DNA of 64,000 nucleotides, taken from assembly GCA_030646995.1 (NCBI GenBank), contig JAUSKF010000006.1:8624-72623 (forward strand), written 5' to 3'. The translations under genes were made by a program, and so were the position numbers. Shown piece by piece: positions 6,482 to 56,291 of this stretch; position 1 is the stretch's first letter; the number at the start of each line of letters is the position of its first letter. The stretch comes from a bacterium (GTDB taxonomy: Bacteria; Patescibacteriota; Minisyncoccia; UBA6257; WO2-44-18). The notes under the pieces were generated by a model, which saw only the letters and a program-made list of their open reading frames with translations, was not told the origin of the DNA and made no database searches.

Positions 6482-7136
6482 GGCGGCTGTTTTCGCCGGT
6501 TTTTTTGCTTTGGCAAAACTAGGCGATTTCAGCCTATTTTCGTTATCTGTATTTTTTGTGGCTGCCTGGGTTTTATACACCCGACCATTTTTTAGGACGT
6601 TTGAGATGGCCGGAACTTTTGTTGTGTTATTGGCTAGCTCAATTGTATTTAGCCACACATTTACTGATTCGATTGATTTCCTGTTCGCAATTGTATATTT
6701 CTCGGCGCTCTTCTATATACTGGTGGGAATTAAGGATTTAGTCCTGATTAACAGAGATGGTTGGAGGGTATTTTTGAACTTCGCTTTGGCCTATCCGGCC
6801 TTTCTTATGTACTTTTACTACAATCAAGGTCATTTTTGGTGGAAATTGCCCTTATTGTTCGCAGTCCTCTTGTTTTTATCCAAGGATTTTCTCAAGAAGA
6901 GGATTGTCTTCTGGTTGGTCGCATTTTTAGGTTCACAAATTGCCTGGGCTGCCGATTTTTTACCAATCGGCTTCGTTAGCTCTGCTAATTTAGCGATTCT
7001 CTTCTATGCTACGGCCGTGTCCTATTGCGACCAGTATTTACGGGAAGGCCTGACTAAAAGACACATTCTTGCGTCTTTTAGTATTTTTCTTGTTCTTTTA
7101 GTCGCTATTTTCGCCTTCTCCTCCTGGGGATTTTAG
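6426..7136 (+). CDS. Multi-pass integral membrane protein of unknown function
   Basis: Five or more hydrophobic helices. The start is ambiguous. The ATG at 6426 has a GGGGAA Shine-Dalgarno sequence but overlaps the clpB 3' end by 56 nt. An alternative ATG at 6606 has an AGGA Shine-Dalgarno sequence. Confidence 0.4.
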   Translation: MVTKLKSVFLSPQSALAFKAAVFAGFFALAKLGDFSLFSLSVFFVAAWVLYTRPFFRTFEMAGTFVVLLASSIVFSHTFTDSIDFLFAIVYFSALFYILVGIKDLVLINRDGWRVFLNFALAYPAFLMYFYYNQGHFWWKLPLLFAVLLFLSKDFLKKRIVFWLVAFLGSQIAWAADFLPIGFVSSANLAILFYATAVSYCDQYLREGLTKRHILASFSIFLVLLVAIFAFSSWGF

Positions 7137-7943
7137 GTATTCCCTGAACTCGGGCCCGAAGTCCTTATGCTTCAAGCCAAAATATACCTGCGCTTTTAAA
7201 ATCCCGATTTTGGATCCCGCATCAAACCTTTTACCAGGGAACTCCCAGGCATAAATTGAGCCTCCTTTAGACACATAGCTTCTTAGCGCGTCTGCTAGGG
7301 GGATTTCTTTGCCCGTGTATGGGTATAATTTTTCTAATTCTTCGAAAATCTCCGGAGTTAAAAGGTATCTGCCGATAATTGCCAGATTTGACGGCGCCTG
7401 GCCTTGGGCGGGTTTTTCCACAATATCCTCGATTAGTCGTAGGTCCTCATACTGCCCATCGGGCGCCACCTTAACCATGCCGTAGCTGGAGGCCAGCTCC
7501 GGAGGGACCGATTCTACCACTACTATCGGGGCATTAGCCTTTTTGAACTGGTCTACTAAGTTCTTTAGAGGCGGAATTTTGTCAGCCAGCAGGTCGTCGC
7601 CGAAACAAACCAAAAAGGGCTCATTTTTTATGAATTGGCGAGCCAGATATACCGCGTCGCCGTTTCCGGCCAGTTTTTCTTGTATAACGAAATCAAATTT
7701 TATTCCCAGCGTTTTCCAGCTGGGATCTTTTTCCAAATGGGTGATGTATTTTTTGAACTCCGGTTGATTTGGCCCGGTCACCAAAATAATATGATTGATT
7801 CCGGCGGCTACGATTTCGTCTATGACATAGTGAATAATCGGTCGGTCTACAATCCCAATCATTCCCTTTGGTTGATGTAGAGTCAGGGGCATTACTCGGG
7901 TCCCTAATCCGGCAACCGGCAAGATGGCTTTTTTGACTTCCAT
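7098..7943 (-). CDS. galU: UTP--glucose-1-phosphate uridylyltransferase
   Basis: KAILPVAGLGTRVMPLT...PKGMIGIVDRPIIHYVIDE is the classic GalU N-terminus. Its stop overlaps the end of the previous gene. Confidence 0.85.
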   Translation of the reverse strand: MEVKKAILPVAGLGTRVMPLTLHQPKGMIGIVDRPIIHYVIDEIVAAGINHIILVTGPNQPEFKKYITHLEKDPSWKTLGIKFDFVIQEKLAGNGDAVYLARQFIKNEPFLVCFGDDLLADKIPPLKNLVDQFKKANAPIVVVESVPPELASSYGMVKVAPDGQYEDLRLIEDIVEKPAQGQAPSNLAIIGRYLLTPEIFEELEKLYPYTGKEIPLADALRSYVSKGGSIYAWEFPGKRFDAGSKIGILKAQVYFGLKHKDFGPEFREYLKSPGGEGENSD

Positions 7944-19837: not shown

Positions 19838-21224
19838 TGCTTCGGACCAGAAACACTCCTTGTTGCACTACTTCTTTAAGGGCGAGGCCCTGAAGAGGTT
19901 TTTTGATACGCTGGCGACCGGCATCGGGTTAATCAATTCCTACTTCATCATCAGCACTCTCTCCGTTTTCCACTTCGGTTTGTATCAGTTAGTACTATCT
20001 TTCATAGCCATACTGGACGGCTTCAGTTTGGATGTGATGGATGGAGTGGTAGTGGTAGATATGCGTAGTTATCTTAATAAAGGTTTGAGGGGAGCCGCTA
20101 AAAAACTTTATTTGGCGTATATAAAGTTGAAACTTGGAATCTCTATCATGATGGCGGTCGGCGCTTTTTTCCTTTCCGGCATAATTGCCAAGTCTTATAG
20201 CGAGGACATCGGACTGCTGATAAAGATCGCCAGCTTGCTGCTGATATTCAGATCCCTTCAATCATTGGAGTCGTTGATTCTGAAAGTGATAATGAACTTT
20301 ACTTATTGGAGTTATCCGGCCGTGCGCGAGGTCGCCAAGTTGGGTCTTATTATATTTTTGTTGGTTACGAGTGGAAGTTTTTCAATAGTTCAACTGCTGA
20401 CCGCCCACGTTATAGCCGATGGCGTGGCGGTGCTGTTTCTGACCTTGGTTTTGTTTTGGAGGAATTTTTATAAGGTATTTCACGGGGTCGTTAGCGATGC
20501 CGAGAACCACTTGTGGGGGGTAATCAAAACATATGGCCATTGGACGGTTTTGCGTTATGTTTTTTCCAAGATCAGCAAAAATGTCACACCCTGGTTCTTG
20601 AAGTTCTTTATTAACACAGAGGCGGTCGCTTTTTATTCGTTAGCGATCAATCTCATAGCCTTTATCGAGAATCTATTTCCTCTGGATGGGCTTTCCCCGA
20701 TCCTGGCTCTTAAGTCGGACAATCGGGGGGAAATTAGCTTTATCTTCAAGAGGGCGGTTAAGTACGCTTTTTGGTTGGGAATGATTCTAATGGTAGTGAG
20801 TTTTATCTTCGTGCCTCCGGTGGTGACGTTTATTTTCCCCAAGTATCAGCCGGCCATGCCCATCTTCAAGGTAATGATTTTGGCTTTGCCTATTTTCGGA
20901 TTCTATAAGATTCTTAAGGCTACTTTGACGGTTTTGAAAGAGCAGAGAGTGCTAACGATGCGTCTACTGAACGAATCATTGATGGTGCCGCTGGGTTTGA
21001 CTATCTTCCTGCCAATCTTTAAATTGGCGGGAGCTGGCGCGGCATACGCTATGGCTTACGTAGAAAGAGTTTGGTTCTTTTATTCCCAGCTGATTAAGAA
21101 ATATCCGGAATTTCGGATTAAGATTCGGCAGTTCTTCAAGATTGATGAATATGACCGCGAAATTTTTCGTCGTACGATCCGGCGTCCTTTGCAGGCGATT
21201 AAAGAATTGCGAAAAAATAAATAA
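19827..21224 (+). CDS. Polysaccharide biosynthesis/export membrane protein (Wzx/MOP flippase-like, about 12 TM helices)
   Basis: Roughly 465-aa multi-pass protein with a Wzx-like N-terminus (LKRFFDTLATGIGLINSYFI). The start is set to the internal ATG at 19827 (MIINAS), which overlaps the upstream GT4 by 11 nt. Confidence 0.5.
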   Translation: MIINASDQKHSLLHYFFKGEALKRFFDTLATGIGLINSYFIISTLSVFHFGLYQLVLSFIAILDGFSLDVMDGVVVVDMRSYLNKGLRGAAKKLYLAYIKLKLGISIMMAVGAFFLSGIIAKSYSEDIGLLIKIASLLLIFRSLQSLESLILKVIMNFTYWSYPAVREVAKLGLIIFLLVTSGSFSIVQLLTAHVIADGVAVLFLTLVLFWRNFYKVFHGVVSDAENHLWGVIKTYGHWTVLRYVFSKISKNVTPWFLKFFINTEAVAFYSLAINLIAFIENLFPLDGLSPILALKSDNRGEISFIFKRAVKYAFWLGMILMVVSFIFVPPVVTFIFPKYQPAMPIFKVMILALPIFGFYKILKATLTVLKEQRVLTMRLLNESLMVPLGLTIFLPIFKLAGAGAAYAMAYVERVWFFYSQLIKKYPEFRIKIRQFFKIDEYDREIFRRTIRRPLQAIKELRKNK

Positions 21225-22570
21225 TGCAAACCAAAACCGTTTTTATATCCTGTTTTTTTAATCTGGTGGCGCGCAATGTTTTGGAAACCAGTTTTTTTCA
21301 AAAATTGCGCAGCCGTACCGATTTGAAGATTGTTCTTCTTGCTCCGCAGGGCAAAGGAGATTTTTTTCGTAAGGAATTTGGTGGATCGAATGTGGCGGTG
21401 GAGGAGGTGCCGACGCGTCCGATGTCCAAACCTGGTCTTTTGTTTCACTTGTTGGCGTGGAATTTATTAAGAACAAAGAGCAAGGAGATACACCGCTTTG
21501 TTCAGTTAGGAAAGGACCGTAATTATGCGCGATATTTTTTCACGTCGGCCATGAATTGGTTTGGTGGTCGGCCGCTTATTCGCCGAGCGTTTCGTTATTT
21601 CGATGCCTTTATGCCTAGCGGTGGCTTTGACTATCTTTTTGATCGTTATCGGCCAGATTTGGTGTTTGCCACAGATATTCAAGATCTACGTGTGCAGGAG
21701 TTAAGCGATACCGCGCTTATCCGGGCCGCTCGGCGACGGGGAGTGAACAGCGTGGGTATGTCGCGCTCGTGGGACAGCATGACCACTAAGGGGTTGCTGC
21801 GCACCCTGCCCGATTTGTTAGTAGTTCAAACAGACAATATCAAAAGCCAGGCAGTCGCCTACCACAGCGTCCCCGCTGATCGTGTGGTCGTAGTCGGCGT
21901 GCCACACTATGATTCCTATATAACCGGTACTCGGACATCCCGAGAAGATTTTTTCAAAAGGATCGGGTTGGATCCGGCTAAAAAACTTATATTTTTTGCC
22001 CCACCCAGCGATATTTGGACCGGCGACAAGTCTTTGAACCCATTTTTATTCAAAACGATCGCTTCCATTGGGGAGCAAGTGGTCGCCCGCTTTCCTATAT
22101 TTGGAGAGTTGGACCTAGGGGATTTCGCGCGACCCGCTAATATGGTTTTTGACCGACCAACCAACTCGGATAATTTAGCGGAGGCTTTATTAGCGAAAAA
22201 AGACGATGCCCACTTTGCTAATCTTCTCTACCACAGCGATGTAGTAGTTACTGGGCCGTCGAGTGTGATCTTAGATGCTTCTCTATTCAATAAGCCAACG
22301 ATCTTGATCGGTTTTGATGGAGAAAAAATAAAGCCCTATTGGCAAAGATTGAGTCGATATTATGATTACGAACACCAGGATGCGGCGATCAGGTTAGGCG
22401 AGCTTAGGGTCGCCAAAAGCCGGGGAGAGCTGGTAGAGTATATAAAAGAAGGTCTTAGTCAGCCTAAGCGCGGAGAAGAGGGTCGTCGACGGTTAGCAAA
22501 TAGTTTCTGCCAGGATTTAGACGGAAGATCCGGGGAGCGTTTGGCGGCAGCGATCACTGATAATCTATGA
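21224..22570 (+). CDS. TagB/TagF-like (CDP-glycerol glycerophosphotransferase family, PF04464-like) polyol-/glycosyl-phosphate transferase, paralog 1
   Basis: C-terminal TagF-like signatures VVTGPSSVILDASLFNKPTILIGFDGE (compare ITDYSSVFFDYALLDKPIIFF) and terminal DGRSGERLAAAI. One of five paralogs in the window. Confidence 0.5.
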   Translation: MQTKTVFISCFFNLVARNVLETSFFQKLRSRTDLKIVLLAPQGKGDFFRKEFGGSNVAVEEVPTRPMSKPGLLFHLLAWNLLRTKSKEIHRFVQLGKDRNYARYFFTSAMNWFGGRPLIRRAFRYFDAFMPSGGFDYLFDRYRPDLVFATDIQDLRVQELSDTALIRAARRRGVNSVGMSRSWDSMTTKGLLRTLPDLLVVQTDNIKSQAVAYHSVPADRVVVVGVPHYDSYITGTRTSREDFFKRIGLDPAKKLIFFAPPSDIWTGDKSLNPFLFKTIASIGEQVVARFPIFGELDLGDFARPANMVFDRPTNSDNLAEALLAKKDDAHFANLLYHSDVVVTGPSSVILDASLFNKPTILIGFDGEKIKPYWQRLSRYYDYEHQDAAIRLGELRVAKSRGELVEYIKEGLSQPKRGEEGRRRLANSFCQDLDGRSGERLAAAITDNL

Positions 22571-23340: not shown

Positions 23341-24498
23341 TTGCGCAGAAAAATTTGTGTGTTCTCCGGTAAGCGCGGTGGATTCGGGGCTTATCTGAAC
23401 TTGATGCGTTTAATCGAGAATGATCCTGATCTAGAATTGCAGATCATTTTGAGCGATATGCACGCTTCCGATAAATTCGGAGCGACCGCAAAAGAGGTGA
23501 AAGGATTTTTCCCTAACGTAGATATGGAAGTGGTTCCGATGAATTCCTCCAGCTCAGATTCTCCGGTGGCTCGCGCAACGAATCTTGGTGCCTGCCTAGA
23601 AGGCTTGGCTCCGGCGCTCGAGCGTCTTAAGCCGAATATTCTGATGGTGCACGGAGATCGCGGAGAACATTTGATGGCAGCATTTGCAGCTCTCAATCTT
23701 GGCATCCCCGTTACTCACACCCAAGGAGGCGAGACTTCCGGAAACATCGATGATGTTCAGCGTCATGCGATTACCAAGTTGGCACATTTGCATTTTCCGG
23801 AAACAGAGAAGGCAGCCCAGAAGATCCGCGCACTTGGAGAAGATGATTGGAGAATCCGAGTTGTCGGGTCTTTGTATATCGATCGGATCGTGGGAAAGCA
23901 GTACTCCGATGTCGGTGAGATGAAGAAGCGTTATGATGCGCCCGGTGAGTACGTTCTCGTGTTGTATCATCCCGACACCTTTCTTACCCCTGCCGAGAAT
24001 CGACAAGTGATGACGGACATCCTGGTTGCGGTTATGCACGTATGGAGGATTAGGACGATCGTCGTTCATCCTTGCTCTGATCCCGGTCATGAGGAAGTGA
24101 TTAGCACAATCAACGCCGCGAAAAAAGAAGACGTTTTTGACCACCTTCGGGTTTACAAGAACATCGATAACTTAGACTTCTTGGGGTTGATGGCCGGTGC
24201 CAGTGCCCTGATTGGAAATTCTTCCGCCGCCTTGGTCGAGGCTCCTTATTTTCATCTGCCGGCAGTCAATGTCGGAGATCGGCAGCGAGGGCGTGATCAC
24301 GAGCTGAACATCATCAACTCCGCAACGGAAATAAATTCCATCGTGAACGCCGTGGGTAAGGCGATCAACCCCTCTGGCGATTTGCGGGATATTTTGAAGA
24401 GTTGTGGGCAGAGATTGGGCGATGGGCATGCCTCCGAAAAGATTTTTGCGGCTCTGAAAGCAGTAGAGATCAACGAAAAACTTTTGCGTAAAAGTTAA
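23341..24498 (+). CDS. UDP-N-acetylglucosamine 2-epimerase, hydrolysing type (NeuC/LegG-like)
   Basis: RKICVFSGKRGGFG...DPDLELQIILSDMH (compare NeuC ILCITGTRADFG...HPDLELHLIVTGMH); HGDRGEHLMAAFAALNLGIPVTHTQGGE. TTG start with a good Shine-Dalgarno sequence, and an in-frame TAA 12 nt upstream. Confidence 0.7.
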   Translation: MRRKICVFSGKRGGFGAYLNLMRLIENDPDLELQIILSDMHASDKFGATAKEVKGFFPNVDMEVVPMNSSSSDSPVARATNLGACLEGLAPALERLKPNILMVHGDRGEHLMAAFAALNLGIPVTHTQGGETSGNIDDVQRHAITKLAHLHFPETEKAAQKIRALGEDDWRIRVVGSLYIDRIVGKQYSDVGEMKKRYDAPGEYVLVLYHPDTFLTPAENRQVMTDILVAVMHVWRIRTIVVHPCSDPGHEEVISTINAAKKEDVFDHLRVYKNIDNLDFLGLMAGASALIGNSSAALVEAPYFHLPAVNVGDRQRGRDHELNIINSATEINSIVNAVGKAINPSGDLRDILKSCGQRLGDGHASEKIFAALKAVEINEKLLRKS

Positions 24499-24523: not shown

Positions 24524-24570
24524 ATTTGTTGTAAAATAATGCGTGCGCAGTTATATTGAGATTGGTTTAC

Positions 24571-25284
24571 ATGATAAATTATGAACATAGTGCCGTTGCG
24601 ATTATTCCTGCTCGTGGCGGATCCAAGGGGCTACCGGGCAAGAATACTAAGTTATTAGCCGGAAAGCCGCTGATCGCCTACAGCATTGAAGCAGCCAAAA
24701 AAAGCCGGTTCGTTAGTCGGGTAATCGTCACCACCGACGATCCAAAGATAGCGGAAGTTGCCAAGGCCGCGGGTGCCGAAGTCCCCTTTTTGCGTCCGGC
24801 GGAGATAGCCCAAGACAGCACCCCGATGTTGCCGGTGGTCCGCCATACCCTAGAATGGTTACAGCAAAATGAAAATTTTGCGCCGGAATTTGTGTTGATG
24901 ATCCAGCCGACTTCTCCATTCGTGAAAACTGAGCAGATAGATGCTCTATTCGAACTTTTGGTTTCCAAAGGAGCTGATTCAGGAATTACTACTATCGAAT
25001 TGCCGCGCCCATTCCATCCATATCACGTGCGCCATCTCACCGAGAGCGGGTATTTAGAATTTGATCAACCGGAATTACATTATCAGCACCCGACTAGGCA
25101 ATCCGATCCGAAACGCTACGCCTTCGCGAGCGTTTATTGGTTCAATCGTGACCTTTTTCTGAAAGAAAATAAAATTGAACCGGGTAAAAGAGTAGGTTTA
25201 CCGGTGGACCCGGCAACCGCGCACGATATCAACAATGCTTTTGATTGGGAAATAGCGGAAGTCCTGGTTAAGAAATACGGCTAG
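24571..25284 (+). CDS. Acylneuraminate/nonulosonate cytidylyltransferase family (NeuA/LegF/PseF/KdsB-like, CTP_transf_3)
   Basis: AIIPARGGSKGLPGKN...VIVTTDDPKIAEVAKAAGAEVPFLRP is a near-textbook NeuA N-terminus. The ATG at 24571 is chosen over the TTG at 24556. Confidence 0.75.
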   Translation: MINYEHSAVAIIPARGGSKGLPGKNTKLLAGKPLIAYSIEAAKKSRFVSRVIVTTDDPKIAEVAKAAGAEVPFLRPAEIAQDSTPMLPVVRHTLEWLQQNENFAPEFVLMIQPTSPFVKTEQIDALFELLVSKGADSGITTIELPRPFHPYHVRHLTESGYLEFDQPELHYQHPTRQSDPKRYAFASVYWFNRDLFLKENKIEPGKRVGLPVDPATAHDINNAFDWEIAEVLVKKYG

Positions 25285-26255: not shown

Positions 26256-28343
26256 ATGGCGAGCGATGAGGTTGTTAAACCAAAGCTTGTTTATCTTAGC
26301 GATCTTACGCATACCTACCAGACAGTCGCTCTGAATACGGTTCCCTTTTCTGTTGCCGGATTGGTGTCTTACGCAAAGGCTAAACTCAAAGATTCGCAAG
26401 GTTTTCGGTTCCGCATTTTTAAGTATCCGGAAAAATTGATCACTGCTCTGCTGGAAGCCCCGCCTGATATCTTGTGTTTCAGCAATTACGTCTGGAACCT
26501 GGACCTGGGATATAGCATTGCCGAGCAGGTCAAGAAGGACCATCCGGAGGTCATCGTGATCTTCGGTGGCCCGAACTATCCCACCGATTTCAGCGAACAG
26601 GAGAAATTTCTTGCGGACCATCCGGCGATCGATTTTTATGCCTACAAAGAAGGTGAGATCGGTTTTACGGAACTGCTGGAAAGCCTAGCCACTAAGAATT
26701 TTGATGTTGCTATGGTTAAGGCTCTGAAGCCGCGCAGTTTTCATTACCTACTCGCCGGAGCTTTGGAAGTCGGCTTCTTGGCCGACCGCATCAAAGATTT
26801 GGAGGACATTCCTTCGCCATACCTGACTGGCGAGCTGGATGAGTTTTTCGACGCAACGCTAATCCCGATGATTCAGACTAATCGTGGCTGCCCGTTCACC
26901 TGCACTTTTTGCGTTGAGGGCTTGGGCTACTACAATAAGGTTAATAAGCGTTCGGTGGATACGGTGCGCAAAGAGTTGGAGTACATCGCCGGTCACAAGC
27001 ACCCCAACATCCACGATCTGCATATCGTCGATTCCAATTTCGGAATGTATAAGGAAGACGAGGCGATCGCCGATGCTATCGCGGGAGTACAGGAAAGTCA
27101 CGGCTGGCCGCAATATATCCATGTGGCTACCGGGAAAAACCAAAAGGAGCGCGTTTTGAGGGTTGCGAAGACCATCAACGGCGCTTTGCGGCTGGCCGGT
27201 TCGGTCCAGTCGCTATCGGAAAAAGTTCTCGAGAATATCAAGCGGGGGAATATCTCCGCTGATCAGCTGATGGATCTCGCTCACAAGGCAAAAGAGCTTG
27301 GTAGCAATACCTATTCCGAGATCATCGTGGCTCTGCCCGGTGAGACCAAGGAATCACACTTCGAAACGATCGGTACAATCGTCAACGCCAAATTCAATTG
27401 GGTTAGGATCTATACCCTGATGATGTTGTCGGGCGTGGAGATGTCCAATAATGAAACTCGCAAGAAGTATGAGATGCAGACCCGCTATCGGGTATTGCCT
27501 CGCTGCTTCGGATCATACAAGTTCGGCAACGAATTACTATTGAGCGCCGAGGTGGAAGAGGTTTGTGTGGCGACCAAAGATATGTCGTTTGAAGATTATC
27601 TTGATTGCCGCCTATTCCATCTGACGGTGGAGATTTTCTACAACGACAGCGTCTCTTCCGAGCTGGTGGAATTCCTGAACCTGTTCGGTATCTCGGTTTT
27701 CGACTGGCTGAAGCACATCCATGATCAACGTGATAGTTTCCCCGAACCGCTGAAGAAGATCTACCAGAATTTCTCGAGGTTGAGCCATGAAGAGCTTTGG
27801 GATTCCAAAGAACAGCTTTTGAAATTCACCAAAGACGAGCAGGTAATTCAGAAATACCTAACCGGAGAATACGGCAGCAACCTAATCTTTACCCACAAAG
27901 CGATGGCGATGACCGAAGCCCTGGAGGAGGTGTTGGCCGTTGCTTTCATCAGCGCCCGCTCCATTTTGGGTGGCACGCGACCGGAAACTCTAGGCGAATA
28001 TTCCGATTACCTTTCTAACTTGCAGGTTTACAGTGAGCTGAAGAAGAGAAGTCTCTTTGACGACAAGCTCCTGTCCGGGCCTGGAAATAGTCCGGAATTC
28101 AGCCGCTTGCTCTTCTTTGATTTTTTGGGTCTGGAAAATCAGGGATTCCGGGTTCTGCCCGACAACTTCCGCAAGCCGAACGGAGTGCTGGCAAGCTTCG
28201 TCCATACGGACGATCAGAGGAAGATCATCAAAGACAGTCTGGACCTATATGGCCGGAATATCATCGGCATTGCCCGAGTTCTGAGCAAGGTCCACGTTAC
28301 CAAGATTTACCGTATGTTGGTTCAGAATGATATCGTCGATTAA
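26256..28343 (+). CDS. Cobalamin-binding (class B) radical SAM enzyme, large (about 695 aa)
   Basis: N-terminal B12-binding-like Rossmann (ILCFSNYVWNLD...VIVIFGGPN), radical SAM cluster motif NRGCPFTCTFC (CxxxCxxC), and a long C-terminal extension. The start is moved to the ATG at 26256 (MASDEVV). Confidence 0.7.
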   Translation: MASDEVVKPKLVYLSDLTHTYQTVALNTVPFSVAGLVSYAKAKLKDSQGFRFRIFKYPEKLITALLEAPPDILCFSNYVWNLDLGYSIAEQVKKDHPEVIVIFGGPNYPTDFSEQEKFLADHPAIDFYAYKEGEIGFTELLESLATKNFDVAMVKALKPRSFHYLLAGALEVGFLADRIKDLEDIPSPYLTGELDEFFDATLIPMIQTNRGCPFTCTFCVEGLGYYNKVNKRSVDTVRKELEYIAGHKHPNIHDLHIVDSNFGMYKEDEAIADAIAGVQESHGWPQYIHVATGKNQKERVLRVAKTINGALRLAGSVQSLSEKVLENIKRGNISADQLMDLAHKAKELGSNTYSEIIVALPGETKESHFETIGTIVNAKFNWVRIYTLMMLSGVEMSNNETRKKYEMQTRYRVLPRCFGSYKFGNELLLSAEVEEVCVATKDMSFEDYLDCRLFHLTVEIFYNDSVSSELVEFLNLFGISVFDWLKHIHDQRDSFPEPLKKIYQNFSRLSHEELWDSKEQLLKFTKDEQVIQKYLTGEYGSNLIFTHKAMAMTEALEEVLAVAFISARSILGGTRPETLGEYSDYLSNLQVYSELKKRSLFDDKLLSGPGNSPEFSRLLFFDFLGLENQGFRVLPDNFRKPNGVLASFVHTDDQRKIIKDSLDLYGRNIIGIARVLSKVHVTKIYRMLVQNDIVD

Positions 28344-28345
28344 CT

Positions 28346-28377
28346 AAAAGAGCCCTTTACTGGGCTCTTTTTTTACA
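28346..28377 (+). terminator. Rho-independent terminator AAAGAGCCCtttactGGGCTCTTTTTTT
   Basis: Seen directly, 3 nt after the stop. Confidence 0.65.
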
Positions 28378-28383
28378 GTATGC

Positions 28384-28409
28384 TGGAGGCAGAATTTTGA
28401 CAGCCTCCA
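28384..28409 (+). promoter_or_regulatory. 7-bp hairpin (TGGAGGC...GCCTCCA) with TTGACA in its loop, immediately upstream of the AAGGAG Shine-Dalgarno sequence of the SQD1-like gene
   Basis: Seen directly. Its function as a 5'-UTR structure or promoter element is unknown. Confidence 0.3.
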
Positions 28410-28421
28410 AAAGGAGAAAAA

Positions 28422-29576
28422 ATGAAGAAGATCTTGGTGTTGGGGATTGACGGATATCTCGGTTGGCCGACTGCGATGCGTTTTTCTCAGTTGGGTTATG
28501 AAGTGGCCGGCGTAGATAATATGGCGAAGCGTGGCTGGGAGGACGAAGTCGGCGCCAAGCCCTTGTGGCCGGTGCCGACCTTGCAAAAGCGAGTCCGGGT
28601 CTGGGAAAAAGTTTCCGGCAAAAAGATTCGGGTATTTGTTGGGGATATCACGGGCGGACGTTTCATCTACAAAGTTTTTGAAGATTTCCGTCCGGACGTA
28701 GTTATTCATTATGCCGAACAGCCTTCGGCGCCGTATTCCATGAAGAATCGTCAGCATGCCGTTTTCACTCAGGAGAACAACGTCTCAGGTACGCTGAACG
28801 TGATTCATGCAATGATGAGTTTTTGCCCCAAAGCGCACCTGGTTAAGCTGGGTACGATGGGTGAGTATGGAACTCCGAACATCGACATTGAAGAAGGCTG
28901 GCTGGACATTGAGCACAACGGTCGTAAGGATCGGATGATGTTTCCGAAGCGGCCGGGATCTTTCTATCACCTGAGTAAGGTGCACGACAGTCACAACATT
29001 GAATTTTGCTGTCGGGTCTGGGGTTTGAGGGCGACCGATCTTAACCAGGGAGTGGTTTATGGTATCGCAACCGACGAAACGGAACTCCACCCGGAATTGC
29101 TCACCAGTTTTCATTACGATAGCGATTTCGGGACTGCCCTGAATCGCTTCTGCGTTGAAGCAGTGGCGGGAGTTCCTTTGACCGTTTACGGAAATGGTGG
29201 CCAGAAGCGCGGATTTTTGAATATCCGTGATACGCTCCAGTGCGTCCAGATCGCTACGGAGAATCCAGCCGAATCCGGAGAGTTTCGGGTATTCAATCAG
29301 TTCACGGAAGTATTTTCTGTGACGGAGCTGGCTAAGTTGGTTCAGAGTGGCGCAAAGGAGCTGGGTTTGTCGGTGAAGATCGCCAACCTGCCCAACCCTC
29401 GCGTCGAAAGTGAGGCGCATCACTATAATCCGAAAAACGATTCGCTTCTGAAGCTCGGATTGCAGCCGAATATGCTTTCTGGAGAGTTGGTTGACTCCAT
29501 GCTCCGGAAGATCCAAGACGCCCGGGAATTGATTGATCTCGAGGTCATTCATCCTAAGACGAAGTGGAAACGTTAA
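28422..29576 (+). CDS. sqdB: UDP-sulfoquinovose synthase (SQD1/SqdB/Agl3 family)
   Basis: Near-identical blocks to plant/cyanobacterial SQD1 from memory: LVKLGTMGEYGTPNIDIEEG, FYHLSKVHDSHNI, ATDLNQGVVYG, GTALNRFCVEA, YGNGGQKRGFLNIRDTLQCVQIA, EFRVFNQFTEVFSVTELA. It is a monocistronic unit flanked by terminators. Confidence 0.85.
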   Translation: MKKILVLGIDGYLGWPTAMRFSQLGYEVAGVDNMAKRGWEDEVGAKPLWPVPTLQKRVRVWEKVSGKKIRVFVGDITGGRFIYKVFEDFRPDVVIHYAEQPSAPYSMKNRQHAVFTQENNVSGTLNVIHAMMSFCPKAHLVKLGTMGEYGTPNIDIEEGWLDIEHNGRKDRMMFPKRPGSFYHLSKVHDSHNIEFCCRVWGLRATDLNQGVVYGIATDETELHPELLTSFHYDSDFGTALNRFCVEAVAGVPLTVYGNGGQKRGFLNIRDTLQCVQIATENPAESGEFRVFNQFTEVFSVTELAKLVQSGAKELGLSVKIANLPNPRVESEAHHYNPKNDSLLKLGLQPNMLSGELVDSMLRKIQDARELIDLEVIHPKTKWKR

Positions 29577-29580
29577 AATC

Positions 29581-29610
29581 AGCTCCGCATTAATGCGGAG
29601 CTTTTTATTT
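29581..29610 (+). terminator. Rho-independent terminator (perfect 22-bp palindrome AGCTCCGCATTAATGCGGAGCT plus T-run)
   Basis: Seen directly, 5 nt after the sqdB-like stop. Confidence 0.7.
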
Positions 29611-29671
29611 CTTAAATTGCCAAACCGGCTTTAAATTGTTAATTTATGGTTATAACTTCCGTCTATCAGAT

Positions 29672-30634
29672 ATGTTGAATATTCTATTAGCAGAAAAAGT
29701 TTTCAGCCCTGATGCCAAGAAGATCCTAGCCAAAAAAGGCAGGGTTGTGGATTTTGTTTCTCGCCGGGAATTTATGAAAAATCTATCGAAGGCCGATGTT
29801 TTAGTGAATGCCTTAGAGATAAAGCTGGATAAGAATATCTTGCAAAAGGCGATCCGGTTGAAGCTGATAGGTAGCCGCACCACCCAGCTTCGCTATATTG
29901 ATTTGGACGAATGCAAAAAACGAGGAATTGAAGTAGTAAATATCAAGGCCGACTCACCGGTATTGCAGATTACCCCGTCCACCGCCGAAGAGGCGATGGC
30001 TCTGATTTTTTCCGTCCTCCGTCATATTCCTTGGGCGTTCGATTCAATTAAAAATGGCCAATGGGATCGGAAAAAATATGAAGGCCGCGAACTTTATGAA
30101 AAAACAGTCGGTCTAATCGGCTTTGGACGCTTAGGAAAGATGGTAGCAAAATTCTGCCAGGCTTTTGGCGCGATAGTGATTGCTTGCGACCCTAATATAA
30201 CCGCTAAGGCTATGCAAAAATCTAAAGTAAGAAAGGTTCCTATGAAAGAGTTGCTTAAAAAAGCTGATATTATTTCTCTGCATTCTGTTTATAATGACGC
30301 TACCTTCGGGATGTTAAAGGAGGAACATTTTCGATCCATGCGGCCGACGGCGATTTTTATCAATACTGCCAGAGGAGAGATAACTGATGAAAAGGCTTTG
30401 CTGAAAGCCCTAAGGCAAAATTGGATCGCCGGATCAGGGATTGATACTTTGGCCGGAGAAATGCCCGACGGCAGACATCTGATAGGTAATCCGCTAGTGG
30501 ATTATGCGCGGAAGAATAATAATTTGATTATCCTTCCACACCTGGGGGGATCCACTAAAGAGGCGACCGAGAGAACCCAGGTCTACATAAGCGAGCTTGT
30601 AGCCCGGGAGTTAAAAGGCGCTAAATATGAATAA
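29672..30634 (+). CDS. D-isomer-specific 2-hydroxyacid dehydrogenase (SerA-like 3-phosphoglycerate/glycerate dehydrogenase)
   Basis: NAD-binding GLIGFGRLGKMVA, catalytic R/E/H context (FINTARGEITDE, HLGGST). It sits upstream of glyA. Start at the ATG at 29672 (MLNILLAEKVF). Confidence 0.65.
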   Translation: MLNILLAEKVFSPDAKKILAKKGRVVDFVSRREFMKNLSKADVLVNALEIKLDKNILQKAIRLKLIGSRTTQLRYIDLDECKKRGIEVVNIKADSPVLQITPSTAEEAMALIFSVLRHIPWAFDSIKNGQWDRKKYEGRELYEKTVGLIGFGRLGKMVAKFCQAFGAIVIACDPNITAKAMQKSKVRKVPMKELLKKADIISLHSVYNDATFGMLKEEHFRSMRPTAIFINTARGEITDEKALLKALRQNWIAGSGIDTLAGEMPDGRHLIGNPLVDYARKNNNLIILPHLGGSTKEATERTQVYISELVARELKGAKYE

Positions 30635-31865
30635 AGATCATCAATTAGGAAAATTAGTTAAAGCCGAGATCAAGAGACAGGAGGAAACCTTGGATCTTAT
30701 CCCGTCCGAAAATTACGCCTCTCCGGAAATTCTAGAATTGCTGGGTTCGCCCCTCACTAATAAATATTCCGAGGGTTATCCGGGCAAGCGCTATTATCCG
30801 GGCAATGTTTTTTATGATGAGATAGAGCGGCTGGCTCAAAAGAGGGCGTTGGAGGTCTTTACTCTGGACCAGAATGAGTGGGCGGTGAACGTACAGCCAT
30901 ATTCCGGATCCCCCGCCAATCTGGCGATCTATTCGGCCCTGATGGAGTTCGGCGATACCCTGCTTGGTTTAAAGTTAGACGCGGGTGGTCATCTCACTCA
31001 TGGGCATAAGGTTAATTTTTCCGGCAAGGCCTACAAGGTTGTTCATTATGGAGTTTCCGAAAAAACGGGATTAATAGACTACGATCAATTGGAAAAGTTG
31101 GCGCGGGAGAATAAGCCCAAGGTAATCGTTTCCGGTTTAACTGCATATCCTCGGGAGATTGATTTTAAAAGGATTGGCGCAGTGGCCAAATCGGTTGGCG
31201 CTTATCACCTGGCGGACATTTCTCATATTGCCGGATTAGTTTTGGCCGGCTTGCACCAATCCCCATTTGATTATGCCGACGTGGTGATGACCACCACTCA
31301 TAAGGCCCTCCGTGGGCCGAGAGGAGCAGTAATCTTTTCGAGAAAATTCCCAATTACTAATTCCCAATTACTAATTTCTGAAGCAATCGATAAGGCGGTT
31401 TTTCCGGGGATGCAGGGCGGGCCCCACAACAACTCCACGGCCGCCCGCGCTTTGATGTTTTGGGAGGCTGGCCAGCCATCGTTCAAAAAATATCAGGAGC
31501 AGACTCTGAAGAACTCTAAAAAACTGGCGGAATCGTTGATGAAATTGGGTTTTAAATTGCTGACCAATGGCACCGACAATCATTTGATGGTAGTAGATTT
31601 GAAGAATTTTAATTTGGATGGAAAGATAGCCGAGCAGATGTTGGAAGCTAATAATATTAATGCTAATCGCAATTCTATTCCCGGAGATCTTTCGCCTCTG
31701 AAGCCGAGCGGTATTCGTATAGGCACTCCAGCGGTTACGACTCGTGGAATGAAGGAGCGAGAAATGGAATTAATCGCTGATTTTATTTATCGGGTATTAG
31801 TTAAAAAGGAAGACGTGGGCGCAGAGGCCAAGAAGCTTTGCAAAAAGTTCCCGCTCCCTTATTAA
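30627..31865 (+). CDS. glyA: Serine hydroxymethyltransferase
   Basis: DLIPSENY, VQPYSGSPAN, TTTHKALRGPRGAVIF, AVFPGMQGGPHNN. It contains a perfect 14-bp tandem duplication at 31347..31374. Confidence 0.9.
   Translation: MNKDHQLGKLVKAEIKRQEETLDLIPSENYASPEILELLGSPLTNKYSEGYPGKRYYPGNVFYDEIERLAQKRALEVFTLDQNEWAVNVQPYSGSPANLAIYSALMEFGDTLLGLKLDAGGHLTHGHKVNFSGKAYKVVHYGVSEKTGLIDYDQLEKLARENKPKVIVSGLTAYPREIDFKRIGAVAKSVGAYHLADISHIAGLVLAGLHQSPFDYADVVMTTTHKALRGPRGAVIFSRKFPITNSQLLISEAIDKAVFPGMQGGPHNNSTAARALMFWEAGQPSFKKYQEQTLKNSKKLAESLMKLGFKLLTNGTDNHLMVVDLKNFNLDGKIAEQMLEANNINANRNSIPGDLSPLKPSGIRIGTPAVTTRGMKEREMELIADFIYRVLVKKEDVGAEAKKLCKKFPLPY
31347..31374 (+). repeat. Perfect 14-bp tandem direct repeat (TTCCCAATTACTAA x2) inside glyA coding sequence
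   Basis: Seen directly. It encodes PITN|SQLL inside the variable loop between the PLP-Lys region and the FPGMQGGP motif. Confidence 0.6.
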
Positions 31866-31866
31866 A

Positions 31867-32646
31867 ATGATTATTAACGGCAAAGAAATAGCCGCTAAAG
31901 TTTTGGCGGAGTTGAAATCTCGACCACGGCCCTTGAAAAGCTTAGTGGCTGTTTTGGTTGGAGATGATGCCGCTTCTTTGAGTTTTTTAAAACAGAAAGA
32001 AAAGATTGCGAAGGAGTTAGAGGTGCCATTTACGTTGGAGAGAATTGCTGAAGAGACCAACGAAGAAGATTTAAAAGAAAGGATTGAAGAGATTTGCTCC
32101 GACAAGGGGGTGGGTGGAGTGATTGTGCAATTGCCGTTGCCGGAAAAATTTAATCGCAGCGAGGTTTTGTCGGCGATTGCGCCGGAAAAAGACGTTGATG
32201 GCTTAGTCGGCGCCGCCTTGCCGCCTGCGGCTTTAACCGTTAAAGAAATTTTGAATAATTTGAGTTTTGATTTGGAGGGAAAGACAGTCGGAGTAGTCGG
32301 CAAAGGATTTTTAGTCGGTGCACCGATTGCGAAGTGGCTGGCCGGAAAATGCGGGGAGGTGATAGTTTTCGATAGCAAAAGTGATTTATCCGGACTAAAA
32401 AAGGCCGACTTAGTGATAACTGGCACCGGAAGGGCCGGCTTGATCAAGCCGGAAATGTTAAAAGTTGGCGCGGGAGTAATTGATTTTGGTTTTGGAATGG
32501 TGGACGGGAAGATTCGTGGCGACCTCGACACTTTTAACTTTGAACTTTTAACTTTAAACTTGTCTTTTTATACCCCGACTCCCGGAGGCACGGGCCCAAT
32601 CTTAGTTGCAGAATTGTTTCGGAACTTTTACGATCTGAATAAGTAA
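31867..32646 (+). CDS. folD: Bifunctional methylene-THF dehydrogenase / methenyl-THF cyclohydrolase (FolD), divergent
   Basis: IINGKEIA, VLVGDDAAS, catalytic-region Lys retained (ASLSFLKQKEK), VGGVIVQLPLPEKF, KDVDG, VVGKGFLVGAPIA, PGGTGPILVAELFRNFY. Confidence 0.7.
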   Translation: MIINGKEIAAKVLAELKSRPRPLKSLVAVLVGDDAASLSFLKQKEKIAKELEVPFTLERIAEETNEEDLKERIEEICSDKGVGGVIVQLPLPEKFNRSEVLSAIAPEKDVDGLVGAALPPAALTVKEILNNLSFDLEGKTVGVVGKGFLVGAPIAKWLAGKCGEVIVFDSKSDLSGLKKADLVITGTGRAGLIKPEMLKVGAGVIDFGFGMVDGKIRGDLDTFNFELLTLNLSFYTPTPGGTGPILVAELFRNFYDLNK

Positions 32647-37044: not shown

Positions 37045-38364
37045 ATGCGAACCATCTTTTTATTCGTGGATAAGCCGACTTTCATAGGGGACCTGTTGGA
37101 CACCTCTTATCTGCCTTACCTAGCCTCCAAATATAAGGTGATAGTTTTTACTCGCAAAGTAGACCAGCGGGAGGCGGCGGCGCGCGGTTACCACCAGTCG
37201 CCAAATATTACTTATATGAAATGGCAGATCGAGAACAATCGTCTGCTGGGAGCGATGAAGTTTTTCCGATTTTCCTGCATACGGGAATTCGATTATCTGA
37301 TTACCACAAAATATATACGCAATCGCCGCGGTGAAGATGGAAATAGTTCTCTATTAAGAATTGCCTCTTGGCCCTTAGCCTGGTTGTTCACCTCAAAGTT
37401 TTTTAATTTCATTGAGCGTTTGCTGATGAGGCGTTCGGCCAAGTTTTCCGAATATTGCCGGACTTATCAGCCATCACTGGTCATCACCGCCACCCCCGGT
37501 TTGAATAATTTTGAGGCGGAAGCGGTTTGGCTCGCTAAAAAAGCCGGCCTGCCTACGGTAGCGGTCGATTGCGCTTGGGACAACCTCACTACCCGTGTTA
37601 CCCGCGTTCGTCCCACTGACTATTTTTTTGCCTGGCATGAGCCGATGCGTCAGGAGGCGATAAGGATACACGGCCTTTCTCCGGAACGAGTGCAGGTTAC
37701 CGGACCTTTGCGTTTTGATTATTACTTCACCAAGGAGCCTCAGCAGCCAACCAAGGAAGAGTTTTTGCAATCGTGCGGGCTGGATCCGAAGCTGCCGGCC
37801 ATTTTATATACCACGCAAAAATCCCATCTTTTTGAGGATGATTTTTTAAGGAATCTTATCCAGATGCGTAATGAGCAGCAGATCCCATATGCCAGCATCT
37901 TTATCAGAGTGCACCCACTGGCAAAGCCGGGCCGTTTTCAGGAATTTGAAAAGTTGAAAGATATTTTTGTTGATAGGCCGACAGAAGTTATGTCGTCTGC
38001 CGATCTACGTCATTTAAAATACTCGCTTATGTATGCCGACCTGAATATTAACTATTCCTCCACCATTTCTTTGGAGGCGATGGCTTTTGATAAGCCGGTG
38101 ATAAATTATTTCGAGCCCAGCCTGAAAAGTTTTGAGTTGAATCATTATAAGCCCTTGTTGGATATGAAAGCGTTAAAGTTGGTTTATGACACCAAAAATG
38201 AGCTGGCCAAAGCCATCCGCGATTATTTAGAAGATCCGAGTATTGATCGGGAAGCCCGCAATAAGGTTTTGAATATCTATTTCCCGTTCCGGGACGGCCT
38301 GTGTTATAAGAGGAATGTAGATTTCCTAGAGGAAATTGCAAATTATGGAAATAAGAAAGATTAA
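37045..38364 (+). CDS. TagB/TagF-like polyol-/glycosyl-phosphate transferase, paralog 2
   Basis: LVITATPGLNNFEAEAVWLAKKAGLPTVAVDCAWDNLTTR; C-terminal INYSSTISLEAMAFDKPVINYFEP. Homologous to the ORFs at 21224, 39444, 40809 and 53823. Confidence 0.5.
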   Translation: MRTIFLFVDKPTFIGDLLDTSYLPYLASKYKVIVFTRKVDQREAAARGYHQSPNITYMKWQIENNRLLGAMKFFRFSCIREFDYLITTKYIRNRRGEDGNSSLLRIASWPLAWLFTSKFFNFIERLLMRRSAKFSEYCRTYQPSLVITATPGLNNFEAEAVWLAKKAGLPTVAVDCAWDNLTTRVTRVRPTDYFFAWHEPMRQEAIRIHGLSPERVQVTGPLRFDYYFTKEPQQPTKEEFLQSCGLDPKLPAILYTTQKSHLFEDDFLRNLIQMRNEQQIPYASIFIRVHPLAKPGRFQEFEKLKDIFVDRPTEVMSSADLRHLKYSLMYADLNINYSSTISLEAMAFDKPVINYFEPSLKSFELNHYKPLLDMKALKLVYDTKNELAKAIRDYLEDPSIDREARNKVLNIYFPFRDGLCYKRNVDFLEEIANYGNKKD

Positions 38365-39439
38365 AAAATCAGAGCTTGGCAAAGTTATGGAATTCAACCG
38401 GAAGGAATATCCGGCTGGCCATATTTTGCAGAACGAAACTTACTACAATTGGCAGTTTGATAATGTTTTCAATCCGGAATCGGACAGTTATACCTCCCTC
38501 GGCCTTTTTAATGATGCGGGAGAGTTGGTCGGCACTAATGGATTATTCCCTGCCCCAATCACTTTTTTAAGCAAAAGTCTCCCGTGTATTTGGTTCGCCA
38601 ATTTGATCGTTCGTGAAGATCTACGTAGTTTGGGATATGGCTATCTTCTGATGGAGAAAAGTGTATCGATGGCGGATATGGCGGTAGACCACAATATAAA
38701 TGCTGCGGCGTGGCCTCTTTTTATTAAATCTGGCTGGCAAGGCGGAGATATTGAGCGGTATTTGGGAATTATTAATCCGGAAGGGGCCGAGAGAGTGATT
38801 GGTCAGAGTAATTTAGGGTTGAAGGTCTTGAGTTCTCTGCCGACTAATGATTCCGGTTTGAATTTTGAGTCAGTTTCCAAATTTGATTCGGAAGTGGATG
38901 CTTTGTGGGAAAGCGTCTCGCAGCGTTATCCAATTTCTATAGAGCGAAGTAGTAAATATCTCAATTGGAGATATGCCGAGCATCCGATGACGAAATATCA
39001 CATTTTTTCGGCCAACGCTGGAAACGAAATGAAAGGATTTATTGTGTTGCGCATAGATGAGATCACCGAAGGACCGGAACGAAAGCCGTCGGGAGTTAAG
39101 ATCGGCAGGATAATTGATTGGGTGGCTGACTCGAGCGCAGAAGAATTTATTTTGTTGCAGGCAATCGAGTGGTGCCGGGATCAAAAAGTGGATTTTATTG
39201 ATTATTTCACTACTGAGAATTTTCACGCCGAAAGTCTGAAGAAGTTGGGTTTCGTGAATGATAGGGAAGAGCCTTATTCTTTGATGCCAACCCTCCTGAA
39301 CCCGATCGACCGAGTTAAAAGGACGCGACATAATTTTGCCTTTAAGATTTCTAATCCTGAAAGATTAGATTCCAAGGCGCAAGATTTGGGTAATTGGTAT
39401 GCAGTTAAAGGTTGTGGCGACCAGGATCGGCCATATTAA
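38345..39439 (+). CDS. Acyltransferase of the GNAT fold, FemAB-like tandem architecture (tentative)
   Basis: About 365 aa, in two roughly 170-aa halves with GNAT-like beta-strand/helix patterns (…GYGYLLMEKSV…; …KGFIVLRIDE…). Weak call from sequence alone. Confidence 0.3.
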   Translation: MEIRKIKKSELGKVMEFNRKEYPAGHILQNETYYNWQFDNVFNPESDSYTSLGLFNDAGELVGTNGLFPAPITFLSKSLPCIWFANLIVREDLRSLGYGYLLMEKSVSMADMAVDHNINAAAWPLFIKSGWQGGDIERYLGIINPEGAERVIGQSNLGLKVLSSLPTNDSGLNFESVSKFDSEVDALWESVSQRYPISIERSSKYLNWRYAEHPMTKYHIFSANAGNEMKGFIVLRIDEITEGPERKPSGVKIGRIIDWVADSSAEEFILLQAIEWCRDQKVDFIDYFTTENFHAESLKKLGFVNDREEPYSLMPTLLNPIDRVKRTRHNFAFKISNPERLDSKAQDLGNWYAVKGCGDQDRPY

Positions 39440-39443
39440 AAAG

Positions 39444-52517: not shown

Positions 52518-52518
52518 A

Positions 52519-55943: not shown

Positions 55944-56291
55944 ATGGAAAAAATTTTGGGTATCGGTGTGGATCTTGCAGAGGTCGGGAGGTTTCGGAAA
56001 ATGCCGTTTAAGCGGCATTCCGATTTCTATAAAAAAATTTTTACCGCGTCGGAGATAAAGTATTGTTTATCGAAAGAAAATCCTTATCCGCACTTCGCCG
56101 CTCGCTTTGCCGCCAAAGAAGCGGTGCTTAAGTGTATTCAAGGTACTATTTATAAAATTTTGGATGTGGAGATTTTCAATGATAAAAATGGAGCTCCGAG
56201 TGTTAAAGTTAAAAAGCAGCGAGGAAGATTTTTGGTTTCGCTTTCGCACACCAAAGATCACGCTATTGCCACAGCAATATGGTTAAATTAA
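55944..56291 (+). CDS. acpS: Holo-[acyl-carrier-protein] synthase (4'-phosphopantetheinyl transferase, AcpS type)
   Basis: ILGIGVDLAEV, RFAAKEAVLKCIQ, SLSHTKDHAIATAI. Confidence 0.7.
   Translation: MEKILGIGVDLAEVGRFRKMPFKRHSDFYKKIFTASEIKYCLSKENPYPHFAARFAAKEAVLKCIQGTIYKILDVEIFNDKNGAPSVKVKKQRGRFLVSLSHTKDHAIATAIWLN

Follow-up and report, generated by a model that had tools for sequence, protein, structure and literature searches.

An SQD1-family gene within a surface-glycan island

In this study, we describe a gene for a predicted sulfo-sugar synthase (the SqdB gene, nucleotides 28422 to 29576) in a 64-kb window of contig JAUSKF010000006.1 (assembly GCA_030646995.1), the window being the whole stretch of 64,000 nucleotides that was analysed. 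The gene lies inside a large surface-glycan island, as a preliminary description of the window had stated, and near it are genes for a NeuC-type epimerase, a PseF/NeuA-like cytidylyltransferase and a B12-binding radical SAM protein (Table 1). Related loci in other genomes are referred to by L numbers. The island is syntenic with Patescibacteria metagenome-assembled genomes (MAGs) L002, L006 and L007, in which the 1250-aa peptidoglycan-binding protein, the GT4 glycosyltransferases, the flippase, the NeuC-like protein, SqdB, SHMT and FolD recur, and the nearest SqdB homologues (67-72%) come from Patescibacteria-type MAGs; both findings support the earlier assignment of the host as Patescibacteria-like.

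Comparison of the protein with PDB sequences using phmmer returned Arabidopsis SQD1 (1qrr) with E=1.8e-150 and 505 bits, residues 1-384 aligning to 1-384 without a gap at 56% identity, and the open reading frame (ORF) is intact. The next PDB family, CDP-tyvelose 2-epimerase, scored 41 bits, and GalE chains scored about 25 bits over the N-terminal domain only. An AlphaFold model (pLDDT 81, pTM 0.85, with low confidence at residues 145-180) was matched by Foldseek to 1qrr, 1i24 and 1i2b with a template modelling (TM) score of 0.88, against 0.57-0.68 for epimerases and dehydratases (about 0.65 for GalE-type structures). The NCBIfam UDP-sulfoquinovose synthase model NF041015 led all others by more than 430 bits, whereas GalE models gave 25-36 bits against cutoffs of 262-394 (TIGR01179, 35.7 vs 262). 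The protein clearly does not cluster with plain UDP-glucose 4-epimerases, an outcome that the preliminary description had named as speaking against its proposal, and its assignment to the SQD1/SqdB family therefore stands.

The pocket of the family is largely preserved. The NAD-binding GxxGxxG motif is present as G8-x-x-G11-x-x-G14, the catalytic triad of short-chain dehydrogenases/reductases (SDRs), T145/Y182/K186 (YxxxK), and His183 are conserved, as are H96, M146, E148, Y149, N208 and Q209, and the SQD1 blocks GTMGEYGTP, SFYHLSKVHDSHN, TDLNQGVVYG and FGTALNRFC are identical in the window protein. The roles of T145, M146, E148, Y149, Y182, H183 and K186 in SQD1 and Agl3 have been described (PMC4388408), and alanine mutants of Sulfolobus acidocaldarius Agl3 at H95, M145, E147, Y148, Y182 and K186 (Agl3 numbering), all of which are shared with the window protein, were impaired (PMC4388408). 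The other outcome that the preliminary description had named as adverse, loss of catalytic residues for sulfite addition, turns on position 101: T145/Y182/K186, His183 and M146/E148/Y149 are all in place, and Arg101 is replaced by proline. An HYY motif is common to SQD1 and most of the clade, the HHY of the window protein being idiosyncratic, and the idea of a gatekeeper corresponding to GalE Y299 was dropped since HYY is the same in SQD1 and most of the clade.

By homology with SQD1 and Agl3, the enzyme would oxidise C4 of a UDP-hexose and eliminate water to give a 4-keto-5,6-ene, to which sulfite would add at C6 before C4 is reduced again, yielding a UDP-6-sulfo-6-deoxy-hexose. Most likely the gene encodes a functional SQD1-family NAD-dependent extended SDR that forms a UDP-6-sulfo-6-deoxy-hexose from sulfite. 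A function the same as that of SQD1 is likely, not certain, since Arg101 is proline and the NF041015 cutoff is missed (see below).

The proline lies in the motif EQPSAP, which reads EQRSAP in SQD1 and EQRAAP in SqdB of S. meliloti and Marinovum. In Agl3, for which the primer sequence gives the motif AEQRSAP, the R101A mutant was inactive (PMC4388408). Proline at this position is nonetheless the majority state of the family. Of 80 related loci in which the position is covered, 70 have it, as do 119 of the 120 best database matches and, among the matches listed, 80 of the 104 cluster representatives (50% identity) that could be scored (arginine in 20). As SQD1, Agl3 and the sqdBDC-type SqdB carry Arg101, the experimentally supported enzymes that were checked all belong to the minority type. 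In a HMMER alignment, Pro101 pairs with Lys84 of E. coli GalE, a residue that in GalE structures binds the NAD pyrophosphate through its side chain and forms main-chain hydrogen bonds to the hexose O2 and O3 (PMC6668579); Glc- and GlcNAc-specific groups differ at three residues of the pocket, this position being one of them (PMC6668579). On this homology position 101 would face the C2/C3 side of the sugar and not C6, where sulfite adds, so the change from arginine to proline more likely alters cofactor or sugar recognition than sulfite chemistry.

The closest characterised systems differ from the window gene in definable ways. Compared with Arabidopsis SQD1 (PDB 1QRR/1I24), the window protein is bacterial, lacks a transit peptide, carries Pro101, and is linked to NeuC- and PseF-like genes and not to SQD2/SqdX. 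Agl3 resembles the predicted role in that its sulfo-sugar serves a surface glycan and not a photosynthetic lipid, but it has Arg101, and Sulfolobus transfers sulfoquinovose directly, a context not seen in the window. The alphaproteobacterial SqdB of the sqdBDC operon (S. meliloti, Marinovum) is likewise a family member from a non-plant host in which sqdB is followed by dedicated partner genes; however, it is 39-40% identical to the window protein, keeps Arg101, and has as partners the GT8 glycogenin-like SqdD and the SDR SqdC for sulfolipid. The sqdD/sqdC layout was found only with Arg101-type alphaproteobacterial genes.

Gene context across the family

The family search gave at least 8000 matches and at least 564 clusters at 50% identity with E<=1e-30, close relatives coming from Actinomycetota, Desulfobacterota-type lineages, Sulfuricella, SAR11 and others. 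Sulfoquinovose is usually viewed as a sugar of photosynthetic membranes, the Sulfolobus N-glycan being an exception, and the preliminary description had considered a sulfonated surface sugar unusual in a non-phototroph. This was too strong, as the clade is widespread in non-photosynthetic bacteria, and most of the sequence diversity of the SQD1 family is the Pro101 branch in non-phototrophs.

For the analysis of gene context, one genome per GTDB species was sampled, giving 76 loci, to which loci from exact-protein look-ups were added. Module genes (NeuC-like, CTP_transf_3 cytidylyltransferase and NeuB) were scored within 7 kb in 58 deduplicated loci with at least 5 kb on either side of SqdB. 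In high-GC actinobacterial loci (clusters 8, 13 and 27), a greedy ORF call selects antisense ORFs and is unreliable; counts for these loci are from BLAST against all ORFs. The distribution was bimodal, with at least two module genes in 25/58 loci (all three in 18), one in 2/58 and none in 31/58. The module-bearing loci belong to Patescibacteria (Kaiser-, Uhr-, Falkow-, Vogel- and Parcubacteria), Gaiellales and other Actinomycetota, Syntrophaceae, Desulfarculales, Desulfobacca, Pelagibacteraceae (SAR11) and Verrucomicrobia.

In several phyla the SqdB gene is placed inside module operons, often with overlapping stop and start codons. The gene orders include NeuB-NeuC-SqdB-CTP in SAR11 (L068), SDR-SqdB-NeuB-NeuC in Verrucomicrobia (L069), NeuB-NeuC-2Hacid-CTP-SqdB-B12rSAM in Deltaproteobacteria (L043, L057), SqdB-CTP-2Hacid-NeuB-X-NeuC in Gaiellaceae (L085) and CTP-NeuC-SDR-(CysH)-SqdB-NeuB in Kaiserbacteria (L019, L024), where CTP is the cytidylyltransferase, 2Hacid a 2-hydroxyacid dehydrogenase and B12rSAM the B12-radical SAM protein. 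In loci with two or three nonulosonic acid (NulO) gene sets, the SqdB-proximal NeuB and CTP_transf_3 proteins group into clades that span phyla and exclude the distal copies, while in the NeuC-like tree proximal and distal copies separate only partly. The NeuC-like protein and the cytidylyltransferase of the window are orthologous to the module copies, grouping in neighbour-joining trees among SqdB-proximal copies of other phyla. The linked NeuB scores below both available cutoffs (NeuB model, 256 vs 400; PseI model, 191 vs 340) and so represents a distinct synthase subfamily. It was present in 18/25 well-flanked module loci and in 4/5 short-flank loci carrying module genes; the six module loci without NeuB are all in the window's own sub-lineage.

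Across phyla the conserved partners of SqdB are the NeuC-type epimerase, the PseF-like cytidylyltransferase, NeuB and transferases resembling TagB and BFO_1060. In the part of the Pro101 branch that includes the window protein, the SqdB gene is best read as a component of a horizontally mobile module that comprises the SqdB-like, NeuC-type and PseF/NeuA-like proteins and usually a dedicated NeuB. Often added to it are a PGDH-like dehydrogenase, a B12-radical SAM methyltransferase, TagB/BFO_1060-like transferases and CysH. Orthologues of the PGDH-like 2-hydroxyacid dehydrogenase lie inside SqdB-CTP-NeuB operons in 13/25 module loci (e.g. L085 11892-12854, L043, L057, L028, L021). A KedN5-like B12-radical SAM protein stands directly beside SqdB in Patescibacteria and several Deltaproteobacteria (the window, L025, L042, L043, L057, L084), an adjacency that suggests C-methylation of the sulfo-sugar or of its product. 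In a Syntrophaceae MAG (L021) and a deltaproteobacterial MAG (L057), two SqdB paralogues, both with Pro101 and 50-64% identical to the window protein, occur in one NulO-type locus.

The module resembles the NeuC-NeuB-NeuA and Leg/Pse pathways. The window encodes a PseF-like cytidylyltransferase together with a NeuC-type enzyme that passes its cutoff, and in related loci a NeuB-type synthase is found as well; as in the Leg/Pse pathways, C4/C6 of the UDP-sugar would be modified by an SDR ahead of the epimerase step. The module differs in that the SDR is SQD1-like (sulfite addition) and not a 4,6-dehydratase, that no aminotransferase or acetyltransferase is conserved in the module, and that the window has no NeuB. 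The TagB-like GT-B protein of Tannerella forsythia, Tanf_01245/BFO_1060, represents a NulO transferase family validated genetically (PMC5420450). Its NCBIfam family (NF046086) is the best match of all five TagB/TagF-like proteins of the window, which lie in a NulO-type gene context, but with scores of only 42-80 bits against a cutoff of 200, and teichoic-acid-type polyol-phosphate transferases are equally possible. Two of the five also match TIGR04396 'surface carbohydrate biosynthesis protein', with scores far below cutoffs.

A candidate sulfite supply is encoded next to several of the homologues. A CysH gene lies immediately upstream of the SqdB homologue in L004, L023, L024, L067, L031 and L086, representing at least six Patescibacteria species from Uhrbacteria, Vogelbacteria, Kaiserbacteria and Parcubacteria (L004 9283-13033; L086 9299-11269). 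The L004 protein passes the phosphoadenylyl-sulfate (PAPS) reductase equivalog NF002537 (183.6 bits vs cutoff 154), and the same locus has a gene for a TauE-family membrane protein. In L015 a weaker match to the PAPS reductase family is found about 2.4 kb downstream of SqdB. As Patescibacteria genomes are generally thought to lack sulfate assimilation, CysH beside SqdB was unexpected, and this adjacency is the best independent evidence that Pro101-type enzymes would still use sulfite. A coherent part of the Pro101 branch is wired into sialic-acid-type operons together with a sulfite-producing reductase.

Pro101 genes of the actinobacterial and Sulfuricella types stand outside the module, with no NulO genes nearby. 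In the actinobacterial loci, and in the alphaproteobacterial L064, the next gene is often one for a membrane-anchored GT2 similar to polyprenyl-phosphate sugar synthases (cluster c7, 22 loci), a layout that may point to donation of sulfoquinovose from a lipid carrier in Actinomycetota and some Alphaproteobacteria. Since these genes precede a membrane GT2 and are without NulO genes, direct transfer of the sulfo-sugar is probably the role in this part of the clade.

A predicted sulfonated nonulosonic acid pathway and its alternatives

For the module-bearing loci, our reading is that the SqdB product enters the NeuC/NeuB/cytidylyltransferase route and ends as a CMP-activated sulfonated NulO on a surface polymer. 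We put the probability of this at about one half (0.5), and it is likelier for the clade than for the window itself. We infer the use of sulfite, the sugar substrate and the order of the steps as follows. The SqdB enzyme would form a sulfonated UDP-sugar, probably in its GlcNAc form, which the NeuC-like enzyme would release and epimerise; NeuB would then extend the sugar with phosphoenolpyruvate to a 9-deoxy-9-sulfo NulO, which would be activated with CMP and placed onto a surface glycopolymer by the TagB-like transferases. NeuC-type enzymes work via 2-acetamidoglucal and need a 2-acetamido group, so the scheme requires the GlcNAc form of the SqdB substrate. More tentatively, we propose a widespread, horizontally mobile pathway to an undescribed 9-deoxy-9-sulfo sialic-acid-type sugar, in which CysH would supply sulfite, the Pro101 enzyme would act on UDP-GlcNAc, and the NeuC-like, NeuB, CMP-activating and TagB-like steps would follow. 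On that proposal, which we hold short of even odds, the pathway would add its sugar to the cell envelopes of Patescibacteria, of Gaiellales and other Actinomycetota, of Desulfobacterota-type bacteria, and of SAR11 and Verrucomicrobia, with a version without NeuB in the window.

As a gene it adds a new member to a known family; its novelty lies in the Pro101 state and the conserved NulO-type module. In the literature searched, no paper pairs 'sulfoquinovose' or 'UDP-sulfoquinovose synthase' with 'nonulosonic', nothing relevant was found on sulfoquinovosamine, and few papers pair sulfoquinovose with Patescibacteria or sqdB with neuB, none of them linking the pathways. If the proposal is true, the product would represent a new, strongly acidic class of surface sugar in which a C-sulfonate and a carboxylate occur together. 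It would add a new sink and source to the organosulfonate cycle, including in abundant marine SAR11 and groundwater candidate-phylum bacteria, and would provide CysH with a concrete role in Patescibacteria genomes that are otherwise reduced.

Several results weigh against the sulfonated NulO pathway. A six-frame hmmsearch detected no NeuB-type gene in the 64-kb window (positive control L004, 519 bits) and none within 10 kb in the five closest relatives (L001, L002, L006, L007, L084); NeuB is either elsewhere in these genomes or the lineage ends the pathway differently, and since it is missing from the 64 kb, the NeuB, CMP-activation and transfer steps are the least certain for the window organism. 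The window likewise has no CysH, TauE or other sulfite source. At position 101, the arginine whose change to alanine inactivated Agl3 is a proline, no assayed Pro101-type enzyme was found in the literature searched, and the NF041015 score of 475 misses the curated equivalog cutoff of 575. This miss accounts for the generic name, 'NAD-dependent epimerase/dehydratase family protein', that NCBI (PGAP) gives to a 100%-identical protein; JGI names close relatives UDP-sulfoquinovose synthase. The substitutions at positions 36, 40, 47, 80, 229 and 231 that set the window's group apart from the actinobacterial group are shared by the module-less Sulfuricella group, so they fail to separate module-linked from unlinked Pro101 proteins and provide no sequence signature for a GlcNAc substrate. 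The module trees are neighbour-joining trees with no support values. Gene linkage can equally mean that two separate donors, UDP-sulfoquinovose and CMP-NulO, serve one glycan, and several module loci hold a DPM-synthase-like GT2 as a possible direct user of UDP-sulfoquinovose.

The main competitor is the use proposed in the preliminary description, which we consider possible and somewhat doubtful. It holds that UDP-sulfoquinovose is made in the canonical way from UDP-glucose and sulfite and is moved directly by an island GT4 or GT2 into a glycolipid or surface glycan, as in sulfoquinovosyldiacylglycerol (SQDG) synthesis or the Sulfolobus N-glycan, NeuC and the cytidylyltransferase serving a separate sugar of the same glycan. 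The window protein is closer to SQD1 (56%) than SQD1 is to the alphaproteobacterial sqdBDC-type SqdB (44%); a GalU-like gene, five GT4 and two GT2 proteins are present in the window, NeuB is absent from it, and many Pro101 genes outside the module precede the membrane GT2 described above. Against this reading, no GT4 or GT8 is conserved beside the SqdB gene across 79 loci, nor is any other glycosyltransferase across the clade, and the window GT4s have homologues only within their own lineage, which leaves the earlier suggestion that they are SqdX/SQD2-like partners unsupported; against the archaeal sulfoquinovosyl-related Agl16 model, the highest-scoring GT4 reached 41 bits (cutoff 575). Also against it, in several phyla SqdB lies among the genes for NeuC, NeuB and the cytidylyltransferase, with overlapping codons, and the linked NeuB and cytidylyltransferase are dedicated paralogues.

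A change of chemistry appears unlikely. Here the Pro101 branch would keep the SQD1 scaffold without adding sulfite, for example stopping at or reducing the 4-keto-5,6-ene or adding another nucleophile, so that it would supply a 6-deoxy or 5,6-ene sugar for a 9-deoxy NulO; 9-deoxy NulOs are common in bacteria. The replaced Arg101, the missed equivalog cutoff and the lack of a sulfite-forming enzyme in the window are in its favour, as is the release of UDP-glucose-5,6-ene by Agl3 in the absence of sulfite (PMC4388408). It is opposed by the CysH genes immediately upstream of Pro101-type genes, by the identity of His183 and all other pocket motifs with SQD1, by the orientation predicted for position 101 towards O2/O3 and NAD and away from C6, and by proline being the family majority. 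As for a plain UDP-glucose 4-epimerase or a decayed gene, the generic PGAP name is the point in its favour, and it is refuted by the GalE scores (25-36 bits vs 262-394), the intact gapless ORF, the TM score of 0.88 to 1qrr and 92% conservation in a sister genome; we give it next to no weight. The sulfonated NulO pathway is retained as the preferred reading for the module-bearing loci.

Flanking signals and further features of the island

Table 1. Positions of features in the window and, where an L number is given, in related loci.
Feature	Position	Strand	Remarks
GalU-like UTP-glucose-1-phosphate uridylyltransferase	7098..7943	-	TIGR01099 228 bits, below cutoff 327; possible UDP-glucose supply
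GT4 protein, upstream of SqdB	13611	-	
GT4 protein, upstream of SqdB	14777		tandem double
GT4 proteins, upstream of SqdB	17673, 18734		
TagB/BFO_1060-like GT-B transferase	21224..22570	+	candidate transferase for CMP-activated acidic sugar
NeuC-type UDP-hydrolysing UDP-GlcNAc 2-epimerase	23341..24498	+	TIGR03568 307.6 bits, above cutoff 235.9; wecB model only 77.5
PseF/NeuA-like cytidylyltransferase (CTP_transf_3)	24556..25284	+	PseF model 162.5 bits, below cutoff 205.7
B12-binding radical SAM protein, KedN5-like C-methyltransferase, about 700 aa	26232..28343	+	directly upstream of SqdB
Intrinsic-terminator-like hairpin	28346..28374	+	10-bp stem (28346-28371) and U-run; ends upstream B12-radical SAM gene; kept in L001
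Second hairpin	28384..28409	+	7-bp stem, 12-nt loop; between terminator and Shine-Dalgarno; L001 folds similarly at same place
Shine-Dalgarno GGAG	28413..28416	+	5 nt before SqdB ATG
SQD1/SqdB-family extended SDR, Pro101 type	28422..29576	+	ATG start, 384 aa; predicted sulfite-dependent UDP-6-sulfo-6-deoxy-hexose synthase
Intrinsic-terminator-like hairpin 3' of SqdB	29581..29612	+	9-bp stem with 6 GC pairs (29581-29602), then T-run; kept in L001
PGDH-like D-2-hydroxyacid dehydrogenase	29636..30634	+	overlaps SHMT start
GT4 protein, downstream of SqdB	32646		
Four further TagB/BFO_1060-like paralogues, downstream of SqdB	37045-38364, 39399-40799, 40809-42161, 53823-55172		
Glucose-1-phosphate cytidylyltransferase-like NTP-transferase	44983-45786		292 bits vs cutoff 300
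Paired SqdB paralogues, L021	3399-4565, 8856-10037		
Paired SqdB paralogues, L057	9941-11179, 14397-15542		
Pro101-type SqdB followed by membrane GT2, L077	11178-12230		
Pro101-type SqdB followed by membrane GT2, L064	11151-12209		

The two terminator hairpins and the separate Shine-Dalgarno sequence claimed for the SqdB gene were confirmed. The spacer between the B12-radical SAM gene and the SqdB gene is 78 nt long and, taken as an 81-nt stretch, folds at -27.9 kcal/mol (z=-3.8 vs shuffled controls), and the stem of the downstream hairpin is trailed by UUUUUAUUU (z=-4.5 vs shuffled controls). In the sister genome L001 (92% identity), the Shine-Dalgarno sequence, the terminators and the SqdB ORF are all retained, and both terminator hairpins occur at the same positions with changed stem bases. 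The loop of the second hairpin includes the sequence TTGACA. A scan of 27500-30500 for sigma70-like promoters gave 0 sites vs 3.4 expected, and monocistronic expression is therefore plausible and unproven. In the more distant relatives L002, L068 and L085 the SqdB gene is translationally coupled to its neighbours. The insulated monocistronic unit of the preliminary description thus holds as to its hairpins and ribosome binding site, which are real, and does not as to a promoter, none being detected, or as to generality, the layout being specific to this lineage.

The island is rich in glycosyltransferases. Five GT4 proteins, one of them a tandem double, make six GT4 units, where seven domains had been counted previously, and two GT2 proteins are also present. 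A flippase-like gene, a methyltransferase and a polysaccharide deacetylase are found upstream of SqdB, while further SDRs, a SPASM radical SAM protein, and CDP-glucose-type and aminosugar genes lie downstream. The galU gene reported earlier does exist as a GalU-like gene, but it scores below the TIGR01099 cutoff and lies 20 kb away, outside the island and on the other strand. The NTP-transferase that the island itself carries, at 44983, is not a GalU: it resembles glucose-1-phosphate cytidylyltransferase, pointing to a predicted CDP-hexose chemistry.

The genes for SHMT and FolD (30627-32646) sit within the glycan island, with synteny retained in L001, L002, L006 and L007, and a second, divergent FolD paralogue is found at the left end of the window (150-935). 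An acetolactate-synthase-like thiamine pyrophosphate (TPP) enzyme, a class I/II aminotransferase and a DegT aminotransferase are grouped at 49573-53823 and may constitute a branched-chain or unusual aminosugar route. A role of this TPP enzyme (at 49573) as an Xsc-type source of sulfite was rejected, the acetolactate synthase model giving 481 bits (below cutoff) and Xsc 266 against a cutoff of 620. At 55944-57757, a GNAT gene and a small ORF of 115 aa are followed by an AMP-binding (adenylate-forming) enzyme, a similar AMP-binding gene being present in L084, and this set may acylate or aminoacylate the glycan.

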